Origin: a virus
Taxonomy: Duplodnaviria > Heunggongvirae > Uroviricota > Caudoviricetes
DNA: 22,088 bases
Reading direction: 5' to 3' (one strand)
IMG/VR virus record: IMGVR_UViG_2541047854_000005
The first letter of the stretch is position 1. Each line of letters starts with the position of its first letter. The position numbers and the translations under genes are program-made. The notes under the pieces were generated by a model. That model worked only from the letters and a program-made list of their open reading frames with translations. It searched no databases and had not been told where the DNA came from. This document shows positions 8,987 through 18,197 of the stretch, piece after piece.

Positions 8987-9364
8987 ATGCGTGATATTCA
9001 GATGGTTCTTGAGCGTTGGGGAGCGTGGGCGGCTAATAATCATGAAGATGTGACCTGGTCGTCCATTGCCGCCGGTTTTAAGGGATTAATTCCTTCAAAA
9101 GTAAAATCTCGCCCACAATGTTGTGACGATGACGCGATGATCATTTGCGGGTGCATGGCCCGTCTGAAAAAGAACAACAGCGATTTGCATGATTTATTGG
9201 TGGACTATTATGTCGGCGGCATGACTTTTATGGCGCTTGCACGTAAGCATGGGCGATCTGATTGTTGGGTTGGCAGGATGCTTCAGAAAGCTGAGGGCGT
9301 AGTGGAGGGTATGCTGATGGTGTTGGATCTCCGATTGGAGATGGATGCTGATTGTTCGAAATAA
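8987..9364 (+). CDS. quuD: Late-gene antiterminator Q (phage-21/DLP12 type)
   Basis: [24 protein letters not shown]... matches recalled QuuD; GGAG ribosome-binding site before the ATG at 8987; lies upstream of the late terminator and lysis genes. Confidence 0.8.
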
Positions 9365-9463
9365 TTAAAGGAAAAGTTGCTGTCTGATTGTCATTAGTCT
9401 AACATTTTAAATGTTGGAATCGCAACGTAGTTATTATCATATAACAGCTTGTTTCCTGATTTA

Positions 9464-9491
9464 GCCAGCCTCCCCAAAGGCTGGTTTTTTT
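9464..9491 (+). terminator. Rho-independent terminator, tR'-like, downstream of Q
   Basis: gccagcc-tccccaaa-ggctgg hairpin followed by seven T; expected position for the Q-antiterminated late leader terminator. Confidence 0.6.
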
Positions 9492-9519
9492 CTAATAAGT
9501 ATTATTTCGGGTAGGGATT

Positions 9520-10044
9520 TTATTGTTTAACCCATAATAATTCATTGACATTGAATCCCAACTTTTGAGCGGTTCGCACATAGTCTGCTTTTACTTTATC
9601 TGGAATAGTTGGGGTCCTTGCCAGAATCCATAGGTATTCTCTGTTCGGACCACTGACAAGAGCATACTTATACTCATCATCCAGTTTGATTACATTATAG
9701 CCACCATAGAAGGGGCCAAAAAACGAAACCTTCAATGCTGCAGTTTTAGTATCTCCAGTAAAGTATGCTTTACCTTCGCTCTCGCTCCATTTATTTTTCG
9801 TTGGATCGTATCCACGGTTAAGTACACGAATCCCTCCGTCGTTCCGTTTTCCATAAGTAGCGCTGACCTGTTCCAGACCACGTTCGAACCGGTTCTCGAG
9901 GCGAGCTATTTCATACCATTTTCCGAGGTAGCGGTTGGCGTCAAAATTTGTAATCGGCTGCACACCTTTAGGTGGTGTCGGGGCCTTACATGCTATAAGA
10001 GTGAAAGAGAGTGCAATGCCAGTCAACACAGGCCATAACTTCAT
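9520..10044 (-). CDS. Blc-like bacterial lipocalin, outer-membrane lipoprotein (174 aa)
   Basis: Lipobox LIAC in the signal peptide; KAYFTG...AALKVSFFGPFYGGYNVI...YLWILARTP matches recalled Blc motifs; opposite strand to the late transcript. Confidence 0.8.
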   Translation of the reverse strand: MKLWPVLTGIALSFTLIACKAPTPPKGVQPITNFDANRYLGKWYEIARLENRFERGLEQVSATYGKRNDGGIRVLNRGYDPTKNKWSESEGKAYFTGDTKTAALKVSFFGPFYGGYNVIKLDDEYKYALVSGPNREYLWILARTPTIPDKVKADYVRTAQKLGFNVNELLWVKQ

Positions 10045-10236
10045 AATAAATCCTGTACTTTTGATAGTTGAGAGTAAGTATGAAAGATAGATGATTACGA
10101 CCGATCACTTAAAGAACTTTCATACTATATTAGGAATAGTCCATAACAGAAAAATTGTCAGTGATGACGCCAGAAAGGCAATTTATTCCGTGCACTACAC
10201 AGTTTATGTGTTAATGAATTAGTCAAGGGGGAGAAT

Positions 10237-11196
10237 ATGATAAAAAAACCTGTGATTGGAATCAGCGGTTGTTTGGCCGGTTCTGCTGTTCGTTTTGATG
10301 GTGGTCACAAAAGAGCTGACTTTTTAATGGACAAATTAGTGGAATGGGTAACATTCAGACCAGTATGTCCGGAAATGGCTATAGGGCTGCCAGTTCCGCG
10401 TCCTGCTCTACGTCTTGTGCGCTCGACGCAAGGAAATATACGGATGTGTTTCAGCCACGACCAGAATGAGGATGTGACAGAGAGAATGACAGAGTTTAGT
10501 CGTTCTTATATGGACAAATTAAAGGATGTATCGGGGTTTGTGGTTTGTGCTAAATCTCCCAGCTGTGGCATGGAGCGCGTGCGTGTCTATGATGAAAATG
10601 GTAATCGAGGTCGTAAAGATGGAGTGGGACTATTTACGAGCACTTTGATGGAAAAGTTTTCCTGGCTACCGGTTGAAGAGGATGGGCGATTACATGATCC
10701 AGTGCTTCGTGAGAATTTTGTTGAAAGAGTTTTTGCTTTGCATGAGCTCAATCACCTTTACAAGGAGAAATTATCAAGAAGAGAGTTATTAGCTTTTCAT
10801 AGTCGTTATAAGCTTCAGTTGTTGGCGCATAGTCAGGCAGGCTATAAAGATATGGGACCATTTGTGGCTGCAATACACGAGTGGGCGGACCTTGAATCAT
10901 ACTTTGAGGTGTATCGTGATAAGCTGATGGCGATTCTCAGAAAACCTGCATCACGTAAAAATCACACGAATGTGCTGATGCATATACAGGGGTATTTTAG
11001 TAACTACTTAAGTACACGCCAGCGTAAAGAGTTGAGCGAGGTTATACTTAACTATCGTTCTGGCACATTACCTCTTCTTGCGCCGTTGACTCTGCTGAAG
11101 CATTATCTGGGTGAGTATCCTAATGATTACTTGCTTACACAGAATTACTTCGATTCCTATCCGGACGAACTGGCTCTAAGACTGATGGTAAATTAA
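10237..11196 (+). CDS. DUF523 (TudS-like 2-thiouracil desulfurase) fused to DUF1722 (YbgA-like), 319 aa
   Basis: GGGGAG ribosome-binding site; N-terminus KPVIGISGCLAG...RPVCPE...CAKSPSCGMERV has the Cys pattern of DUF523; the C-terminal half resembles YbgA. Domain calls are from memory. Confidence 0.6.
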   Translation: MIKKPVIGISGCLAGSAVRFDGGHKRADFLMDKLVEWVTFRPVCPEMAIGLPVPRPALRLVRSTQGNIRMCFSHDQNEDVTERMTEFSRSYMDKLKDVSGFVVCAKSPSCGMERVRVYDENGNRGRKDGVGLFTSTLMEKFSWLPVEEDGRLHDPVLRENFVERVFALHELNHLYKEKLSRRELLAFHSRYKLQLLAHSQAGYKDMGPFVAAIHEWADLESYFEVYRDKLMAILRKPASRKNHTNVLMHIQGYFSNYLSTRQRKELSEVILNYRSGTLPLLAPLTLLKHYLGEYPNDYLLTQNYFDSYPDELALRLMVN

Positions 11197-11547
11197 TTGT
11201 ATGCGATATCATCCAAAAGGATGAGTTCCTGCATGCAGGATATTTACAATCGTAAAAACTACACTATGATACCCAGAGTGTCAGTTTGTATAAAAACTCT
11301 GTTTACGCTGAAGAAACAATTGAGATGCAACTTAAAGTTGGTAAACATGCCAGTCAAAATATATAATATTATGATTCCACGCAGCTATATATAATATAAC
11401 GGATTGGTTTAATAATTTGTCTTTGTGAGTTAAATACATAATTTTATACTTGTGATGCAATGAAATTTTCCTTATTGTTGAACTGGCGAATATTGATTTT
11501 CCACCTATACTTACCTGGTGTAACCCCAATGATATCAGGTGGATAAT

Positions 11548-12279
11548 ATGCCATACATATGTTCTATCATTTTGGTGTTGAACTCGTTTGATGTCCGAAT
11601 TGGTAAAGAAGATATTTTGTTTAAAAAAGGAAGTGCTGTTCTCATTGATTACAATTTAAAAGATTTTTTTTCATCAAATATAGATCATGTAATGATCGTA
11701 GATGTTGAAGAGAAAACAGTTAATGATTTCTTTAAAAGCAACACACTCTCACCTTTTTCTGTAAGAAGGTTTTATCCGGCATACTTGATGGTGGAATGTG
11801 AAGATTTTTCATTGTTAAAGAACTTGATTGCATGCTTGAATTGTGATGGCAGAACTGTGGATTTTGTTAGAAATCAAATATCACTTGCATGTCTTGCTAT
11901 CTTATCTTCAGAGAAAATAGTGCAAAGTTTTTTATTTGGATGTCTTAATAGTTTAGGAAGTAAAGTTAAGGCTATTATTCACACGGATATATCTGCAGCA
12001 TGGAGACTTTGTGATATATCTTCAAGACTGTATCTGAGTGAAAGTCTGTTAAAAAGAAAATTAAAGCACGAAGGCTTATCATTTAGTAAGTTAATTCTTG
12101 AAGAGCGAATGGTGATGGCGGAAAGCTTATTAAGCTACAATTTATATTCTGTTGGAAAAGTTGCTGAGATATGCGGTTATGAAAACACGTCATATTTTGT
12201 AAGTGTTTTCAGAAGGTATTTTGGTGTTCCTCCCCATCAATATTCATCAAGATTTTTTTTAGAAAAAGACATGATGTAA
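11548..12279 (+). CDS. AraC/XylS-family transcriptional regulator (243 aa from the ATG at 11548)
   Basis: C-terminal AraC HTH (ICGYENTSYFVSVFRRYFGVPPHQY); AGGTGGA ribosome-binding site before the ATG; markedly AT-rich gene. Confidence 0.8.
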   Translation: MPYICSIILVLNSFDVRIGKEDILFKKGSAVLIDYNLKDFFSSNIDHVMIVDVEEKTVNDFFKSNTLSPFSVRRFYPAYLMVECEDFSLLKNLIACLNCDGRTVDFVRNQISLACLAILSSEKIVQSFLFGCLNSLGSKVKAIIHTDISAAWRLCDISSRLYLSESLLKRKLKHEGLSFSKLILEERMVMAESLLSYNLYSVGKVAEICGYENTSYFVSVFRRYFGVPPHQYSSRFFLEKDMM

Positions 12280-12466
12280 CGTGATGCGTTTTAATGATTT
12301 TGTAATTTTCGTATTTGATAATTGTATGATGCTTTCAGCTACGCCAGAATAATCGCGGCGTTTTTCTTTTTGAATAGATGTTCAAGCCTTACGCTAATGT
12401 AACTTCTATACCTTTCCTCTTCGTTCCGAACCGTGTACACCATCCGTTATTTGCGGAGGTGAGGCT

Positions 12467-12682
12467 ATGAAATCCATGGATAAGTTAACAACGGGCATTG
12501 CCTACGGCACCTCCGCAGGCAGTGCTGGCTACTGGTTTTTACAGCTGCTCGATAAAGTCACGCCCTCACAGTGGGCAGCAATAGGTGTGCTGGGTAGCTT
12601 GGTATTTGGCCTGCTGACGTACCTGACAAACCTTTATTTCAAGATTAAAGAAGATAAGCGCAAGGCTGCGAGAGGTGAATAA
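12467..12682 (+). CDS. essD: Class II holin, phage-21 S-type pinholin with dual-start motif (71 aa)
   Basis: [24 protein letters not shown]... matches recalled S21/EssD; Met1-Lys-Ser-Met4 dual start; GGAGGTGAGG ribosome-binding site. Confidence 0.9.
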
Positions 12683-13179
12683 TGCCTCCATCATTACGAA
12701 AAGCCGTTGCTGCTGCTATTGGTGGCGGAGCAATTGCTATAGCATCAGTGTTAATCACTGGCCCAAGTGGTAACGATGGTCTGGAAGGTGTCAGCTACAT
12801 ACCATACAAAGATATCGTTGGCGTATGGACTGTATGTCACGGGCATACAGGAAAAGACATCATTCCCGGTAAAACGTATACCGAAGCAGAATGCAAAGCC
12901 CTCCTGAATAAAGACCTTGCCACGGTAGCCAGACAAATTAACCCGTACATCAAAGTCGATATACCGGAAACAACGCGCGGCGCTCTTTACTCGTTCGTCT
13001 ATAACGTGGGCGCAGGCAATTTCAGAACATCTACTCTTCTTCGCAAAATAAACCAGGGCGATATCAAGGGCGCATGTGACCAGCTACGTCGCTGGGCATA
13101 CGCTGGCGGTAAGCAATGGAAAGGCCTGATGACTCGTCGTGAGATTGAGCGTGAGGTCTGTTTGTGGGGGCAACAATGA
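12682..13179 (+). CDS. rrrD: SAR endolysin, phage-21 R-type lysozyme (165 aa)
   Basis: N-terminal signal-anchor-release segment [19 protein letters not shown]; lysozyme core; TAATG overlap with the holin stop. Confidence 0.9.
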
Positions 13180-13643
13180 GCAGGGTAACCGCGATTATCT
13201 CCGCTCTGGTTATCTGCATCATCGTCTGCCTGTCATGGGCTGTTAATCATTACCGTGATAATGCAATCGCCTACAAAGAACAGCGCGATAACAAGGCCAG
13301 TGAACTGGAGAAGGCGAACGCCACCATTACTGACATGCAGCAGCGCCAGCGTGATGCTGATGCACTCGATGATAAATACACGAAGGAGTTAGCTGATGCG
13401 AAAGCTGAAAATGATGCTCTTCGGCGCAAGCTTGATAATGGTGGTCGGGTGCTCGTCAAAGGAAAATGCCCTGTGCCATCCTCAGCCGAAACCTCCAGCG
13501 CCTCCGGCATGGGCAATGATGCCACCGTCGAACTCTCTCCAGTTGCTGGACGAAACGTTCTCGGTATCCGGGACGGAATTATCCGCGACCAAACAGCACT
13601 GAGAACGCTTCAGGAATACATCAGGACGCAATGCCTTCGATGA
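13176..13643 (+). CDS. rzpD: Rz i-spanin (155 aa from the ATG at 13176)
   Basis: [30 protein letters not shown]... with N-terminal transmembrane segment and coiled-coil region; ATGA overlap with the endolysin stop. Confidence 0.85.
13396..13602 (+). CDS. rzoD: Rz1 o-spanin lipoprotein, embedded in Rz in the +1 frame (68 aa)
   Basis: GAAGGAG ribosome-binding site; lipobox VVGC; proline-rich [16 protein letters not shown]. Confidence 0.8.
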
Positions 13644-15223: not shown

Positions 15224-15769
15224 ATGGAAGTCAACAAAAAGCAGCTGGCTGACATTTTCGGTGCGAGTATCCGTACCATTCAGAACTGGCAGGAACAGGG
15301 AATGCCCGTTCTGCGAGGCGGTGGCAAGGGTAATGAGGTGCTTTATGACTCTGCCGCCGTCATAAAATGGTATGCCGAAAGGGATGCTGAAATTGAGAAC
15401 GAAAAGCTGCGCCGGGAGGTTGAAGAACTGCGGCAGGCCAGCGAGGCAGATCTCCAGCCAGGAACTATTGAGTACGAACGCCATCGACTTACGCGTGCGC
15501 AGGCCGACGCACAGGAACTGAAGAATGCCAGAGACTCCGCTGAAGTGGTGGAAACCGCATTCTGTACTTTCGTGTTGTCGCGGATCGCAGGTGAAATTGC
15601 CAGTATTCTCGACGGGCTCCCCCTGTCGGTGCAGCGGCGTTTTCCGGAACTGGAAAACCGACATGTTGATTTCCTGAAACGGGATATCATCAAAGCCATG
15701 AACAAAGCAGCCGCGCTGGATGAACTGATACCGGGGTTGCTGAGTGAATATATCGAACAGTCAGGTTAA
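15224..15769 (+). CDS. nohD: Terminase small subunit Nu1 (181 aa)
   Basis: MEVNKKQLADIFGASIRTIQNWQEQGMPVLRGGGKGNEVLYD... matches recalled lambda Nu1. Confidence 0.95.
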   Translation: MEVNKKQLADIFGASIRTIQNWQEQGMPVLRGGGKGNEVLYDSAAVIKWYAERDAEIENEKLRREVEELRQASEADLQPGTIEYERHRLTRAQADAQELKNARDSAEVVETAFCTFVLSRIAGEIASILDGLPLSVQRRFPELENRHVDFLKRDIIKAMNKAAALDELIPGLLSEYIEQSG

Positions 15770-18197
15770 CAGGCTGCGGCATTTTGTCCGCGCCGGGCTT
15801 CGCTCACTGTTCAGGCCGGAGCCACAGACCGCCGTTGAATGGGCGGATGCTAATTACTATCTCCCGAAAGAATCCGCATACCAGGAAGGGCGCTGGGAAA
15901 CACTGCCCTTTCAGCGGGCCATCATGAATGCGATGGGCAGCGACTACATCCGTGAGGTGAATGTGGTGAAGTCTGCCCGTGTCGGTTATTCCAAAATGCT
16001 GCTGGGTGTTTATGCCTACTTTATAGAGCATAAGCAGCGCAACACCCTTATCTGGTTGCCGACGGATGGTGATGCCGAGAACTTTATGAAAACCCACGTT
16101 GAGCCGACTATTCGTGATATTCCGTCGCTGCTGGCGCTGGCCCCGTGGTATGGCAAAAAGCACCGGGATAACACGCTCACCATGAAGCGTTTCACTAATG
16201 GGCGTGGCTTCTGGTGCCTGGGCGGTAAAGCGGCAAAAAACTACCGTGAAAAGTCGGTGGATGTGGCGGGTTATGATGAACTTGCTGCTTTTGATGATGA
16301 TATTGAACAGGAAGGCTCTCCGACGTTCCTGGGTGACAAGCGTATTGAAGGCTCGGTCTGGCCAAAGTCCATCCGTGGCTCCACGCCAAAAGTGAGAGGC
16401 ACCTGTCAGATTGAGCGTGCAGCCAGTGAATCCCCGCATTTTATGCGTTTTCATGTTGCCTGCCCGCACTGCGGGGAGGAGCAGTATCTTAAATTTGGCG
16501 ACAAAGAGACGCCGTTTGGCCTCAAATGGACGCCGGATGACCCCTCCAGCGTGTTTTATCTCTGCGAGCATAATGCCTGCGTCATCCGCCAGCAGGAGCT
16601 GGACTTTACTGATGCCCGTTATATCTGCGAAAAGACCGGGATCTGGACCCGTGATGGCATTCTCTGGTTTTCGTCATCCGGTGAAGAGATTGAGCCACCT
16701 GACAGTGTGACCTTTCACATCTGGACAGCGTACAGCCCGTTCACCACCTGGGTGCAGATTGTCAAAGACTGGATGAAAACGAAAGGGGATACGGGAAAAC
16801 GTAAAACCTTCGTAAACACCACGCTCGGTGAGACGTGGGAGGCGAAAATTGGCGAACGTCCGGATGCTGAAGTGATGGCAGAGCGGAAAGAGCATTATTC
16901 AGCGCCCGTTCCTGACCGTGTGGCTTACCTGACCGCCGGTATCGACTCCCAGCTGGACCGCTACGAAATGCGCGTATGGGGATGGGGGCCGGGTGAGGAA
17001 AGCTGGCTGATTGACCGGCAGATTATTATGGGCCGCCACGACGATGAACAGACGCTGCTGCGTGTGGATGAGGCCATCAATAAAACCTATACCCGCCGGA
17101 ATGGTGCAGAAATGTCGATATCCCGTATCTGCTGGGATACTGGCGGGATTGACCCGACCATTGTGTATGAACGCTCGAAAAAACATGGGCTGTTCCGGGT
17201 GATCCCCATTAAAGGTGCATCCGTCTACGGAAAGCCGGTGGCCAGCATGCCACGTAAGCGAAACAAAAACGGGGTTTACCTTACCGAAATCGGTACGGAT
17301 ACCGCGAAAGAGCAGATTTATAACCGCTTCACACTGACGCCGGAAGGGGATGAACCGCTTCCCGGTGCCGTTCACTTCCCGAATAACCCGGATATCCGGT
17401 TTGATAAATATGACGGTAGCGCAACAACTTTTCTTGGTGATGCGTATATTGATACACAAACGCTTGAAATTAATATGACAGGCGGCGCTGCCTCAAGGAT
17501 TACAGCGAGAGTCAGAAAGGACGAAGCTACCGGATGGATTTTTGCAGAGGCAACAATTCAGGCAATTGATGGGGAGTTAAAAATAGGTTCTCAGATACAG
17601 TATTCTCCTAAGCAGGGCGGGGCAACCGTATCTGGTGACTATATTTATCTGGCCACCCCACAAGTAGAAAATGGGCCTTGTGTATCATCTTTTATTATAT
17701 CAGGAACGACGGCGGCGACCCGCGCAAGCGATATAGTTACAGTTCCCATTAAGAATAATCTTTATAATCTTCCTTTTACGGTTCTTTGTGAGGTACATAA
17801 GAACTGGTATAAAACGCCAAATGCAGCGCCGCGTGTTTTTGACACCGGCGGTCATCAAACCGGAGCGGCAATTATTCTTGGATTCGGTTCTTCAGCAGAT
17901 TACGACGGATTTCCTTATTGCGATATTGGAGGAGCTAACAGACGGGTAAACGAAAACGCATTGCTTGAAAAAATGGTTATGGGGATGCGTGTAAAGTCAG
18001 ATCAGTCTACGTGCTCAGTAAGTAACGGGCGTATATCCAGCCAAACAAAAACCACATGGTCCTGTATTCAGAACACCGCAATTATCCGTATTGGAGGCCA
18101 GACTACAGCCGGGTTACGTCATTTATTTGGTCATGTCAGGAATTTCAGAATATGGCACAAGGCATTGACTGATGCTCAGGTGGGGGAGTCAATCTAA
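15744..18197 (+). pseudogene. aaaD: Terminase large subunit A fragment (codons 1 to about 551) fused in frame to a tail-fibre-like C-terminal segment (817-aa chimeric ORF)
   Basis: Residues 1-551 match recalled lambda gpA (MNISNSQVNRLRHF...GAVHFPNNPDI); from about nt 17396 the sequence diverges into a lectin-like tail-fibre-type C-terminus (...FRIWHKALTDAQVGESI); the A nuclease/ATPase C-terminus and all head/tail genes are missing. Confidence 0.85.

Follow-up and report, generated by a model that had tools for sequence, protein, structure and literature searches.

A recurrent blc-rudS-araC gene block between the Q antiterminator and the lysis genes of Escherichia coli prophages

Introduction

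Proteins in which a TudS (DUF523) domain is fused to a DUF1722 domain were defined as tRNA 4-thiouridine (s4U) desulfidases, or RudS, by Jamontas et al. 2024 (PMC11417400). The same study showed experimentally that the version encoded by Escherichia phage 1H12, RudS_vir, lowers tRNA s4U when overexpressed, and that overexpression of RudS reduces the growth delay caused by ultraviolet A (UVA). E. coli is said to be without RudS, both in that paper (PMC11417400) and in a 2026 review in Microbiology and Molecular Biology Reviews (MMBR). The lipocalin gene blc is among the morons listed by Mathieu et al. 2020 (PMC6969025), who found it in more than 50% of lambda phages from the infant gut, and the AraC-family regulators PatE and PsrB are activators of gadE and hdeAB and repressors of LEE (locus of enterocyte effacement) genes (PMC10877973). 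Here, we describe a block in which a blc-like gene, a rudS gene and a gene for an AraC-family regulator stand side by side, at positions 9520-12279 of a stretch of 22,088 nucleotides (nt) from a virus of the Caudoviricetes (IMG/VR record IMGVR_UViG_2541047854_000005). We call the whole stretch the window, and all coordinates are positions in it unless another sequence is named.

The initial annotation of the window, made from the sequence alone, had assigned to this block a lipocalin lipoprotein on the minus strand, a DUF523-DUF1722 fusion with three conserved cysteines and an AT-rich AraC-family regulator. Domain searches agree with all three assignments, the cysteines being residues 12, 44 and 110. 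The open reading frame (ORF) list and the domain search give ORFs at 9520-10044 (minus strand), 10237-11196 (plus strand) and 11539/11548-12279 (plus strand), and the block and its boundaries are as follows:

8984-9364, plus strand: Q antiterminator, 126 amino acids (aa; PF06530, E 2.5e-51), the left boundary of the block
9520-10044, minus strand: blc-like gene for an outer-membrane lipocalin lipoprotein, 174 aa (Lipocalin_2, NCBIfam Blc)
10237-11196, plus strand: rudS, a TudS(DUF523)-DUF1722 fusion, 319 aa (both Pfam domains)
11548-12279, plus strand: araC, an AraC-family regulator, 243 aa (HTH_18 and HTH_AraC)
11664-11671, plus strand: run of eight T (T8) within araC, around codons 39-42, a frameshift hot spot with variants in related loci
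12467-13643, plus strand: lysis cassette with P21-type holin, endolysin and Rz (Phage_holin_2_1, Phage_lysozyme, Phage_lysis), the right boundary of the block

We argue below that the block is probably a conserved and mobile cassette of the moron type, contributing to lysogenic conversion, whose three genes are most likely independent of one another and act each against a different stress. Each of them belongs to a known family, and two have already been published for the phage that carries the allelic block. The main new point is the prevalence of rudS: about 21% of complete E. coli genomes carry it in a prophage, and it is nearly always intact.

The block is frequent in E. coli and keeps its gene order

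The block had been described as unusual in the initial annotation, which does not hold: it is present in about one in five complete E. coli genomes and in the cultured phages 1H12, those of the Lambda_ev series and IdasGreatGrand. The counts among 5,426 complete E. coli genomes were:

Block (9400-12400): 1,153 genomes, 992 of them with at least 80% query coverage
blc: 1,135 genomes, 1,042 with at least 80% coverage
rudS: 1,136 genomes, 1,064 with at least 80% coverage
araC: 1,033 genomes, 992 with at least 80% coverage

Twelve phage records hold the whole block, including IdasGreatGrand (99%) and the 1H12/Lambda_ev group (88%), and the layout in phage 1H12 is Q, blc (minus strand), rudS, araC, holin. 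When loci were retrieved from IMG/VR via RudS, blc lay divergently upstream in 80 out of 80, with the same Q wherever the flank reaches that far. The gene order in these loci is invariably Q, blc (minus strand), the fusion, araC where it is kept, and the holin; araC is present in nearly all of the 80, the exceptions being frameshifted, truncated or deleted copies. Loci retrieved via Q have the block in all cases that extend far enough. The prophage backbones around it vary: lambda-like at ybhC (STEC309), Qin-like (BL21(DE3)) and DLP12-like. The three genes are thus consistently found together in complete E. coli genomes and in IMG/VR loci, as a check of co-occurrence proposed with the initial annotation had asked. 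Since the co-occurrence is that of one cassette with few alleles, it reflects linkage and not functional dependence. In the literature searched, nothing was found on the three genes as a unit; of the parts, blc (PMC6969025) and RudS_vir (PMC11417400) are published.

Comparison of the window alleles with those of 1H12 gave ratios of nonsynonymous to synonymous substitution rates (dN/dS) of 0.06 (blc), 0.11 (rudS) and 0.26 (araC). These low values indicate that all three genes are maintained. The ORF is intact in 63 of 63 loci for blc, in 59 of 60 for rudS and in 34 of 44 full-length loci for araC. In a minority of loci araC is lost, left as a remnant or frameshifted while blc and rudS are intact, which suggests that it is dispensable relative to the blc-rudS pair. 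The G+C content (GC) of the parts differs (0.438 for blc, 0.433 for rudS and 0.318 for araC, with flanking phage genes at about 0.50), which suggests that they were acquired separately.

The fusion protein is a predicted tRNA 4-thiouridine desulfidase

The fusion protein matches PF04463 (2-thiour_desulf/DUF523) over residues 7-149 (E 3e-40) and PF08349 (DUF1722) over residues 192-309 (E 2.5e-39), and its identity to the RudS_vir protein of phage 1H12 (gp66, H3V29_gp66) is 93% across 319 aa. The residues whose mutation abolished the activity of RudS_KT are C17, C49 and C114 (the cluster ligands), E51, R60, S111 and S113 (PMC11417400). The catalytic residues are all kept in the window protein, as C12, C44, C110, E46, R55, S107 and S109, and the TudS structure 6Z92 aligns with it at the first cysteine and at the CPE motif. 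By homology the protein is a RudS tRNA s4U desulfidase, and the window allele is predicted to be active. It has the TudS-DUF1722 architecture, the length (319 aa) and the position of RudS_vir, between blc and araC in the slot from Q to the holin gene. The two differ by 22 substitutions and in their setting, which is a defective DLP12-type prophage for the former and an active phage for the latter.

The nearest RudS outside phages, about 76% identical, is encoded on the Citrobacter chromosome (gene at 5001-5960 of the Citrobacter-type contigs). There, rudS is the last gene of an operon that also encodes an SDR protein, an FAD amine oxidase, a DUF1365 protein, a methyltransferase like cyclopropane fatty acid (CFA) synthase, a DUF2878 protein, a chalcone-isomerase-like protein and a DUF3833 protein; an IclR regulator is encoded divergently downstream. 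Neither blc nor araC was found near the chromosomal Citrobacter rudS. The DUF3833 protein and an unannotated protein of 175 aa were considered as lipocalin partners in this operon and rejected, as they show no sequence similarity to Blc. A scan of species-representative genomes with RudS, made to find its origin, returned only two short contigs of a 'Candidatus Nanosynbacter' metagenome-assembled genome (JARKOR010000151.1 and JARKOR010000135.1), whose RudS pieces are 93-100% identical to the RudS of E. coli prophages. They most likely represent contamination of the bin by an E. coli prophage, which makes the scan uninformative on origin.

The protein-production strain of the RudS study, BL21(DE3), has its own copy of the locus in a Qin-like prophage (NC_012971.2, 1588189-1589585). 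Q is the same there and blc is intact; an insertion of IS3 leaves rudS as a stub of 49 codons, and neither araC nor the lysis genes remain.

The lipocalin and the AraC-family regulator

The blc product is a full-length match to Lipocalin_2 (PF08212, E 7e-44), scores 316 bits with NCBIfam Blc NF007786 (cut-off 267) and matches the Blc chains of the Protein Data Bank (PDB) with E values from 1e-61 to 3.5e-69, the best being 3MBT at 64% identity. Its counterpart in phage 1H12, gp65, is 97% identical. By eye, the N-terminus, MKLWPVLTGIALSFTLIAC-KA, contains a lipobox (LIAC) with Cys19 and has Lys instead of Asp at position +2. The window protein thus has the lipocalin fold family and the lipobox in common with the chromosomal Blc of E. 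coli (PDB 1QWD, 2ACO, 3MBT), but it is only 64% identical to it, is encoded by a prophage and lies antisense to the late transcript. By eye, the element CATACTTA, about 35 nt upstream of the blc ATG, looks like a sigma-S -10.

The regulator matches HTH_18 over residues 161-237 (E 4e-14) and also HTH_AraC. Its start is the ATG at 11548 in RefSeq and the GTG at 11539 in the mechanical ORF call. It is 82% identical to gp67 of phage 1H12, 54% identical over 235 aa to ECs_0287 of Sakai Sp1 (E 3e-88), which is probably PatE, and 32% identical to both AppY (233 aa) and the chromosomally encoded YdeO (237 aa), in each case with the N-terminal domain included. The best NCBIfam match is to YdeO NF007407, at 127 bits. 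We considered that the protein might be YdeO itself and rejected this, because the score is below the equivalog cut-off of 348; it is a relative of YdeO only. Like PatE and PsrA/PsrB of enterohaemorrhagic E. coli (EHEC) O157 and AppY of DLP12, it has about 245 aa and is encoded by an AT-rich, prophage-borne gene. The genes for PatE and AppY, in contrast, are found close to the tail-fibre genes at the end of the prophage, whereas the window regulator lies between Q and the holin gene. The block also puts a PatE-like regulator in non-EHEC strains.

The T8 tract, in which the defects of araC are concentrated, sets the window gene apart from the PatE/Psr/AppY/YdeO group. Variants with seven, six or nine T are found in about a fifth of related loci and in at least two sequence backgrounds, and the PGAP annotation labels araC as frameshifted in the complete genomes FDAARGOS_433 and EM10-18-28. 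In other araC alleles the tract is interrupted. Either phase variation or simple recurrent loss could account for this variation in length.

The block occupies a cargo slot of lambdoid phages

The initial annotation had placed the block between Q/tR' and the holin gene, in the slot of nmpC and stx, and the comparison with relatives bears this out. Homology with DLP12 of K-12 extends as far as 9346, which is 18 nt short of the stop codon of Q (quuD), and restarts at 12456, 11 nt before the ATG of the holin gene (essD); the same interval of K-12 DLP12 holds nmpC. Phages 4A7 and Chlobot, whose Q gene is 87-88% identical to that of the window, have a leftward porin gene in the slot. In phage 933W, which has a Q of the same family, the slot is filled by tRNAs and stx2. 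As DLP12, 4A7 and Chlobot hold a porin gene there and 933W holds stx2, the interval from Q to the holin gene is a known hot spot for cargo. The presence of the block is also patchy, as is typical of morons: DLP12, 4A7 and Chlobot have a porin gene where it sits.

The organisation of the block resembles that of both kinds of occupant. The porin slots (DLP12, PA-2-like, 4A7 and Chlobot) also have one leftward envelope gene adjoining Q, and 933W also has plus-strand cargo (stx) downstream of tR'. The slot and the Q family are thus the same as those of nmpC/lc porin and stx, but the genes are different and no common sequence is detectable; a comparison of the whole interval from Q to S with DLP12, 4A7 and Chlobot gave only chance 10-12-mers. 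With the block, a third recurrent type of cargo joins porins and Shiga toxin in the Q-S slot that belongs to late control regions of the Q21/Q933W type.

The window is a remnant of a DLP12-type prophage

The window starts with a copy of the insertion sequence IS1, a split espL1/ShET2-like gene, an integrase gene and the run ybcN-ninE-ybcO-rusA-ylcG-Q. The block and the lysis cassette are followed by a DUF1398 gene, nohD, a terminase/tail-fibre ORF and the gene for a KAP-type NTPase. No head genes were found in the window. The ORF of 817 aa at 15744-18197 (plus strand) starts as a terminase large subunit (gpA ATPase and nuclease domains), and its later part is a fragment of a head spike or tail fibre according to the annotation of relatives. 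This deletion fusion of terminase and tail fibre removed the head and tail genes, which marks the prophage as defective, and we classify it as a defective remnant of the DLP12 type. A near-identical element in strain 2452 lacks repressor, replication and head genes and retains only a fragment of ren.

Several neighbouring features are recorded here in their own right. The espL1/ShET2-like type III effector gene (727-2155, minus strand) is split into ORFs of 314 and 157 aa and adjoins the IS1 copy at 1-504; in the related strain 2452 it is annotated as a frameshifted espL1. Upstream of its nin region, the element of strain 2452 also carries emrE, for a small multidrug resistance (SMR) efflux pump (4940-5272 of its locus), and ybcM, a second gene of the AraC type; the window appears to be without part of this emrE/ybcM stretch. 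At the other end, the ORF of the KAP-family P-loop NTPase (20346-22088, minus strand; at least 580 aa) reaches the window edge and matches the PADLOC candidate defence models PDC-S49 (E 7e-16). The three block proteins, searched with PADLOC, have no match to known anti-phage defence systems; each has a dedicated family in PHROGs (phrog_2809, phrog_3275 and phrog_1450), none of them with an assigned function. An Rfam scan at a relaxed threshold gave only sub-threshold chance matches, and a scan for tRNA genes found none.

Late transcription and the block

The initial annotation had proposed that Q-dependent late transcription reads through the plus-strand genes and ties their expression to induction. 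The following elements bear on this proposal:

9377-9405, plus strand: candidate pR' promoter, TTGCTG-N17-TAACAT (by eye)
9463-9494, plus strand: strong intrinsic terminator, candidate tR' (9-bp stem, run of seven U)
10045-10236, between divergent genes: blc/rudS intergenic region, presumed to hold their own promoters (GC 0.339)
11197-11238, plus strand: stem-loop directly 3' of rudS (folding energy), a possible RNA stabiliser or partial terminator
12341-12370, plus strand: weak terminator-like hairpin between araC and the holin gene (folding energy)

The Q protein matches the Q21 structures 6JNX and 6P18 (E 1.9e-8), and its gene is 76-78% identical at the nucleotide level to the Q of Shiga toxin (Stx) phages. 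By homology it is a member of the Q21/Q933W family as Yin et al. defined it. The terminator at 9463-9494 lies about 100 nt after the Q stop codon and has a folding free energy (dG) of -14.9 kcal/mol with a z-score (z) of -3.6; read on the minus strand, it is without a U tract. In the annotation of 933W, pR' overlaps the last codons of Q, and the qut site and the terminator follow within about 70 nt. A pR' that overlaps the end of Q in this manner would explain the sharp boundary of exchange with DLP12 inside the 3' end of Q. A consensus promoter scan of 9365-9462 called nothing, and further -10-like elements (TATTAT/TATCAT at 9432-9440) were seen by eye. We also looked for a late promoter or Q-binding element in common with the DLP12-type slots and rejected the candidates: only chance 10-12-mers were found, and a MAFFT alignment of the regions downstream of Q was unconvincing. 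As no element common to the slots emerged, the pR' given above stays a candidate.

By position, rudS and araC lie where passengers of a late operon would, on the plus strand, downstream of the tR'-like terminator and upstream of S; blc does not. Because the block follows a terminator placed like tR' of 933W, a phage with the same Q family, it is plausible that Q-modified polymerase reads through the plus-strand genes in intact phages. Late transcription in these intact relatives likely starts just after Q and would cross blc in antisense, rudS and araC in sense, and then the holin gene. The prophage of the window is defective, and expression coupled to induction is therefore applicable only to its intact relatives: the read-through part of the proposal is plausible by position, whereas the tie to induction fails for this remnant.

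As for other signals, the blc/rudS intergenic region contains a single weak promoter-like match (10068-10095). The stem-loop after rudS is stable (dG -20.8 kcal/mol, z -4.96) and has no clear U tract. The hairpin after araC has a dG of -8.1 kcal/mol and a z of about 0, and the 1H12 allele is stronger (7-bp stem, dG -12.1 kcal/mol).

A cassette of independent genes and its alternatives

We prefer, with moderate confidence, to see the block as a conserved mobile cassette of independent conversion genes. The lipocalin would be exported to the outer membrane as a lipoprotein and, if it acts like E. coli Blc, would bind lipids such as lysophospholipids. RudS is predicted to hold a [4Fe-4S] cluster on Cys12, Cys44 and Cys110 and, with Glu46, Arg55, Ser107 and Ser109, to convert s4U8 of tRNA to U; removal of s4U would reduce the photo-crosslinking of tRNA by near-ultraviolet (near-UV) light and the growth delay that goes with it. 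The AraC-family protein may act like its homologues PatE, PsrB, AppY and YdeO and activate the H-NS-silenced genes gadE and hdeAB and acid resistance. blc would be transcribed leftward from its own promoter, and in the lysogen rudS and araC are probably served by promoters of their own. Late transcription under Q antitermination would pass over both of these genes as well in intact relatives, as happens with stx in Stx phages, while only expression of the lysogen type would be relevant to the remnant in the window.

The dN/dS values, the decay of araC, the Citrobacter rudS without these partners and the composition of araC favour separately acquired passengers over a single pathway. Four points weigh against our account. 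The linkage of blc and rudS is very tight (80 of 80 loci) and would equally fit a functional pair, and the constancy of the pairing may leave room for a functional link. Of the RudS enzymes tested, RudS_vir reduced tRNA s4U the least and gave, with free 4-thiouracil, the shortest lag (PMC11417400), which suggests that it may have another substrate besides tRNA, or one that matters more. Promoter-like hits numbered 13, as against 10.2 +/- 3.1 in shuffles, and were thus not above background. Finally, that ECs_0287 is PatE (Z0321, OI-8/CP-933H) is only probable, as judged from its position in Sp1/CP-933H.

One alternative, which we regard as unlikely though worth weighing, is that RudS, perhaps together with araC, serves the lytic growth of the phage. 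RudS made late could strip s4U so that translation of the late proteins is not stalled by crosslinks in cells induced by UV, or it could recycle thiolated uracil or uridine monophosphate (UMP) from degraded tRNA. The place of rudS on the late strand, between the candidate tR' and the holin gene, would suit such a role, as would the conservation of this layout in phages that form plaques or can be induced, for example 1H12 and IdasGreatGrand; RudS overexpression lowers the UVA growth delay, and with free 4-thiouracil RudS_vir outdid the other RudS enzymes tested. Yet rudS is intact and under purifying selection in defective prophages (those of the window and of strain 2452), and the removal of s4U cannot repair crosslinks that already exist. 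The defective state of the host element could also be taken to mean that the block is mere ballast in a prophage undergoing decay, with ORFs that are no longer functional, and one may add that a sizeable minority of araC copies carry a frameshift and that rudS is interrupted by insertion sequences in some strains, including BL21(DE3). The dN/dS values of 0.06-0.26 between alleles, the retention of all catalytic residues, the intact ORFs in nearly all loci and the presence of the block in active phages make this very improbable.

The fixed gene order and the nearly complete co-occurrence are, on the other hand, what one would see if the block were an integrated module, in which the AraC protein controls the divergent blc/rudS promoters along with host targets, turning the envelope-lipid function and the photoprotection of tRNA on or off in concert, and the T8 tract is an ON/OFF switch. 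AraC-family regulators often act on adjacent genes, the blc/rudS intergenic region is 90% identical between the window and 1H12 despite a synonymous divergence of 0.2-0.36 in the coding sequences, and the length of the tract varies on at least two backgrounds. We nevertheless find this improbable: araC differs in base composition and more often than any other part is lost or carries a frameshift, with blc and rudS left intact, the tract is interrupted in other alleles, the homologues PatE and AppY occur elsewhere in prophages without blc or rudS, and the chromosomal rudS has no such partners. That a PatE-like regulator, switched ON and OFF by slippage at T8, controls blc/rudS and the acid-resistance regulon of the host as one switchable stress regulon is an idea to which we give a slightly lower probability.

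Implications

Apart from the prevalence of rudS, the new type of cargo in the slot and the PatE-like regulator, the block is an ordinary cluster of morons from known families. If the switchable regulon were real, about one fifth of natural E. coli would have an s4U 'eraser' that alters near-UV tolerance and possibly the yield of UV-induced phage, which would contradict the statement that E. coli is without RudS. With rudS in 1,136 of the 5,426 complete genomes, natural isolates of E. coli may differ in tRNA s4U, in their response to near-UV and perhaps in tRNA turnover according to the prophages that they carry.

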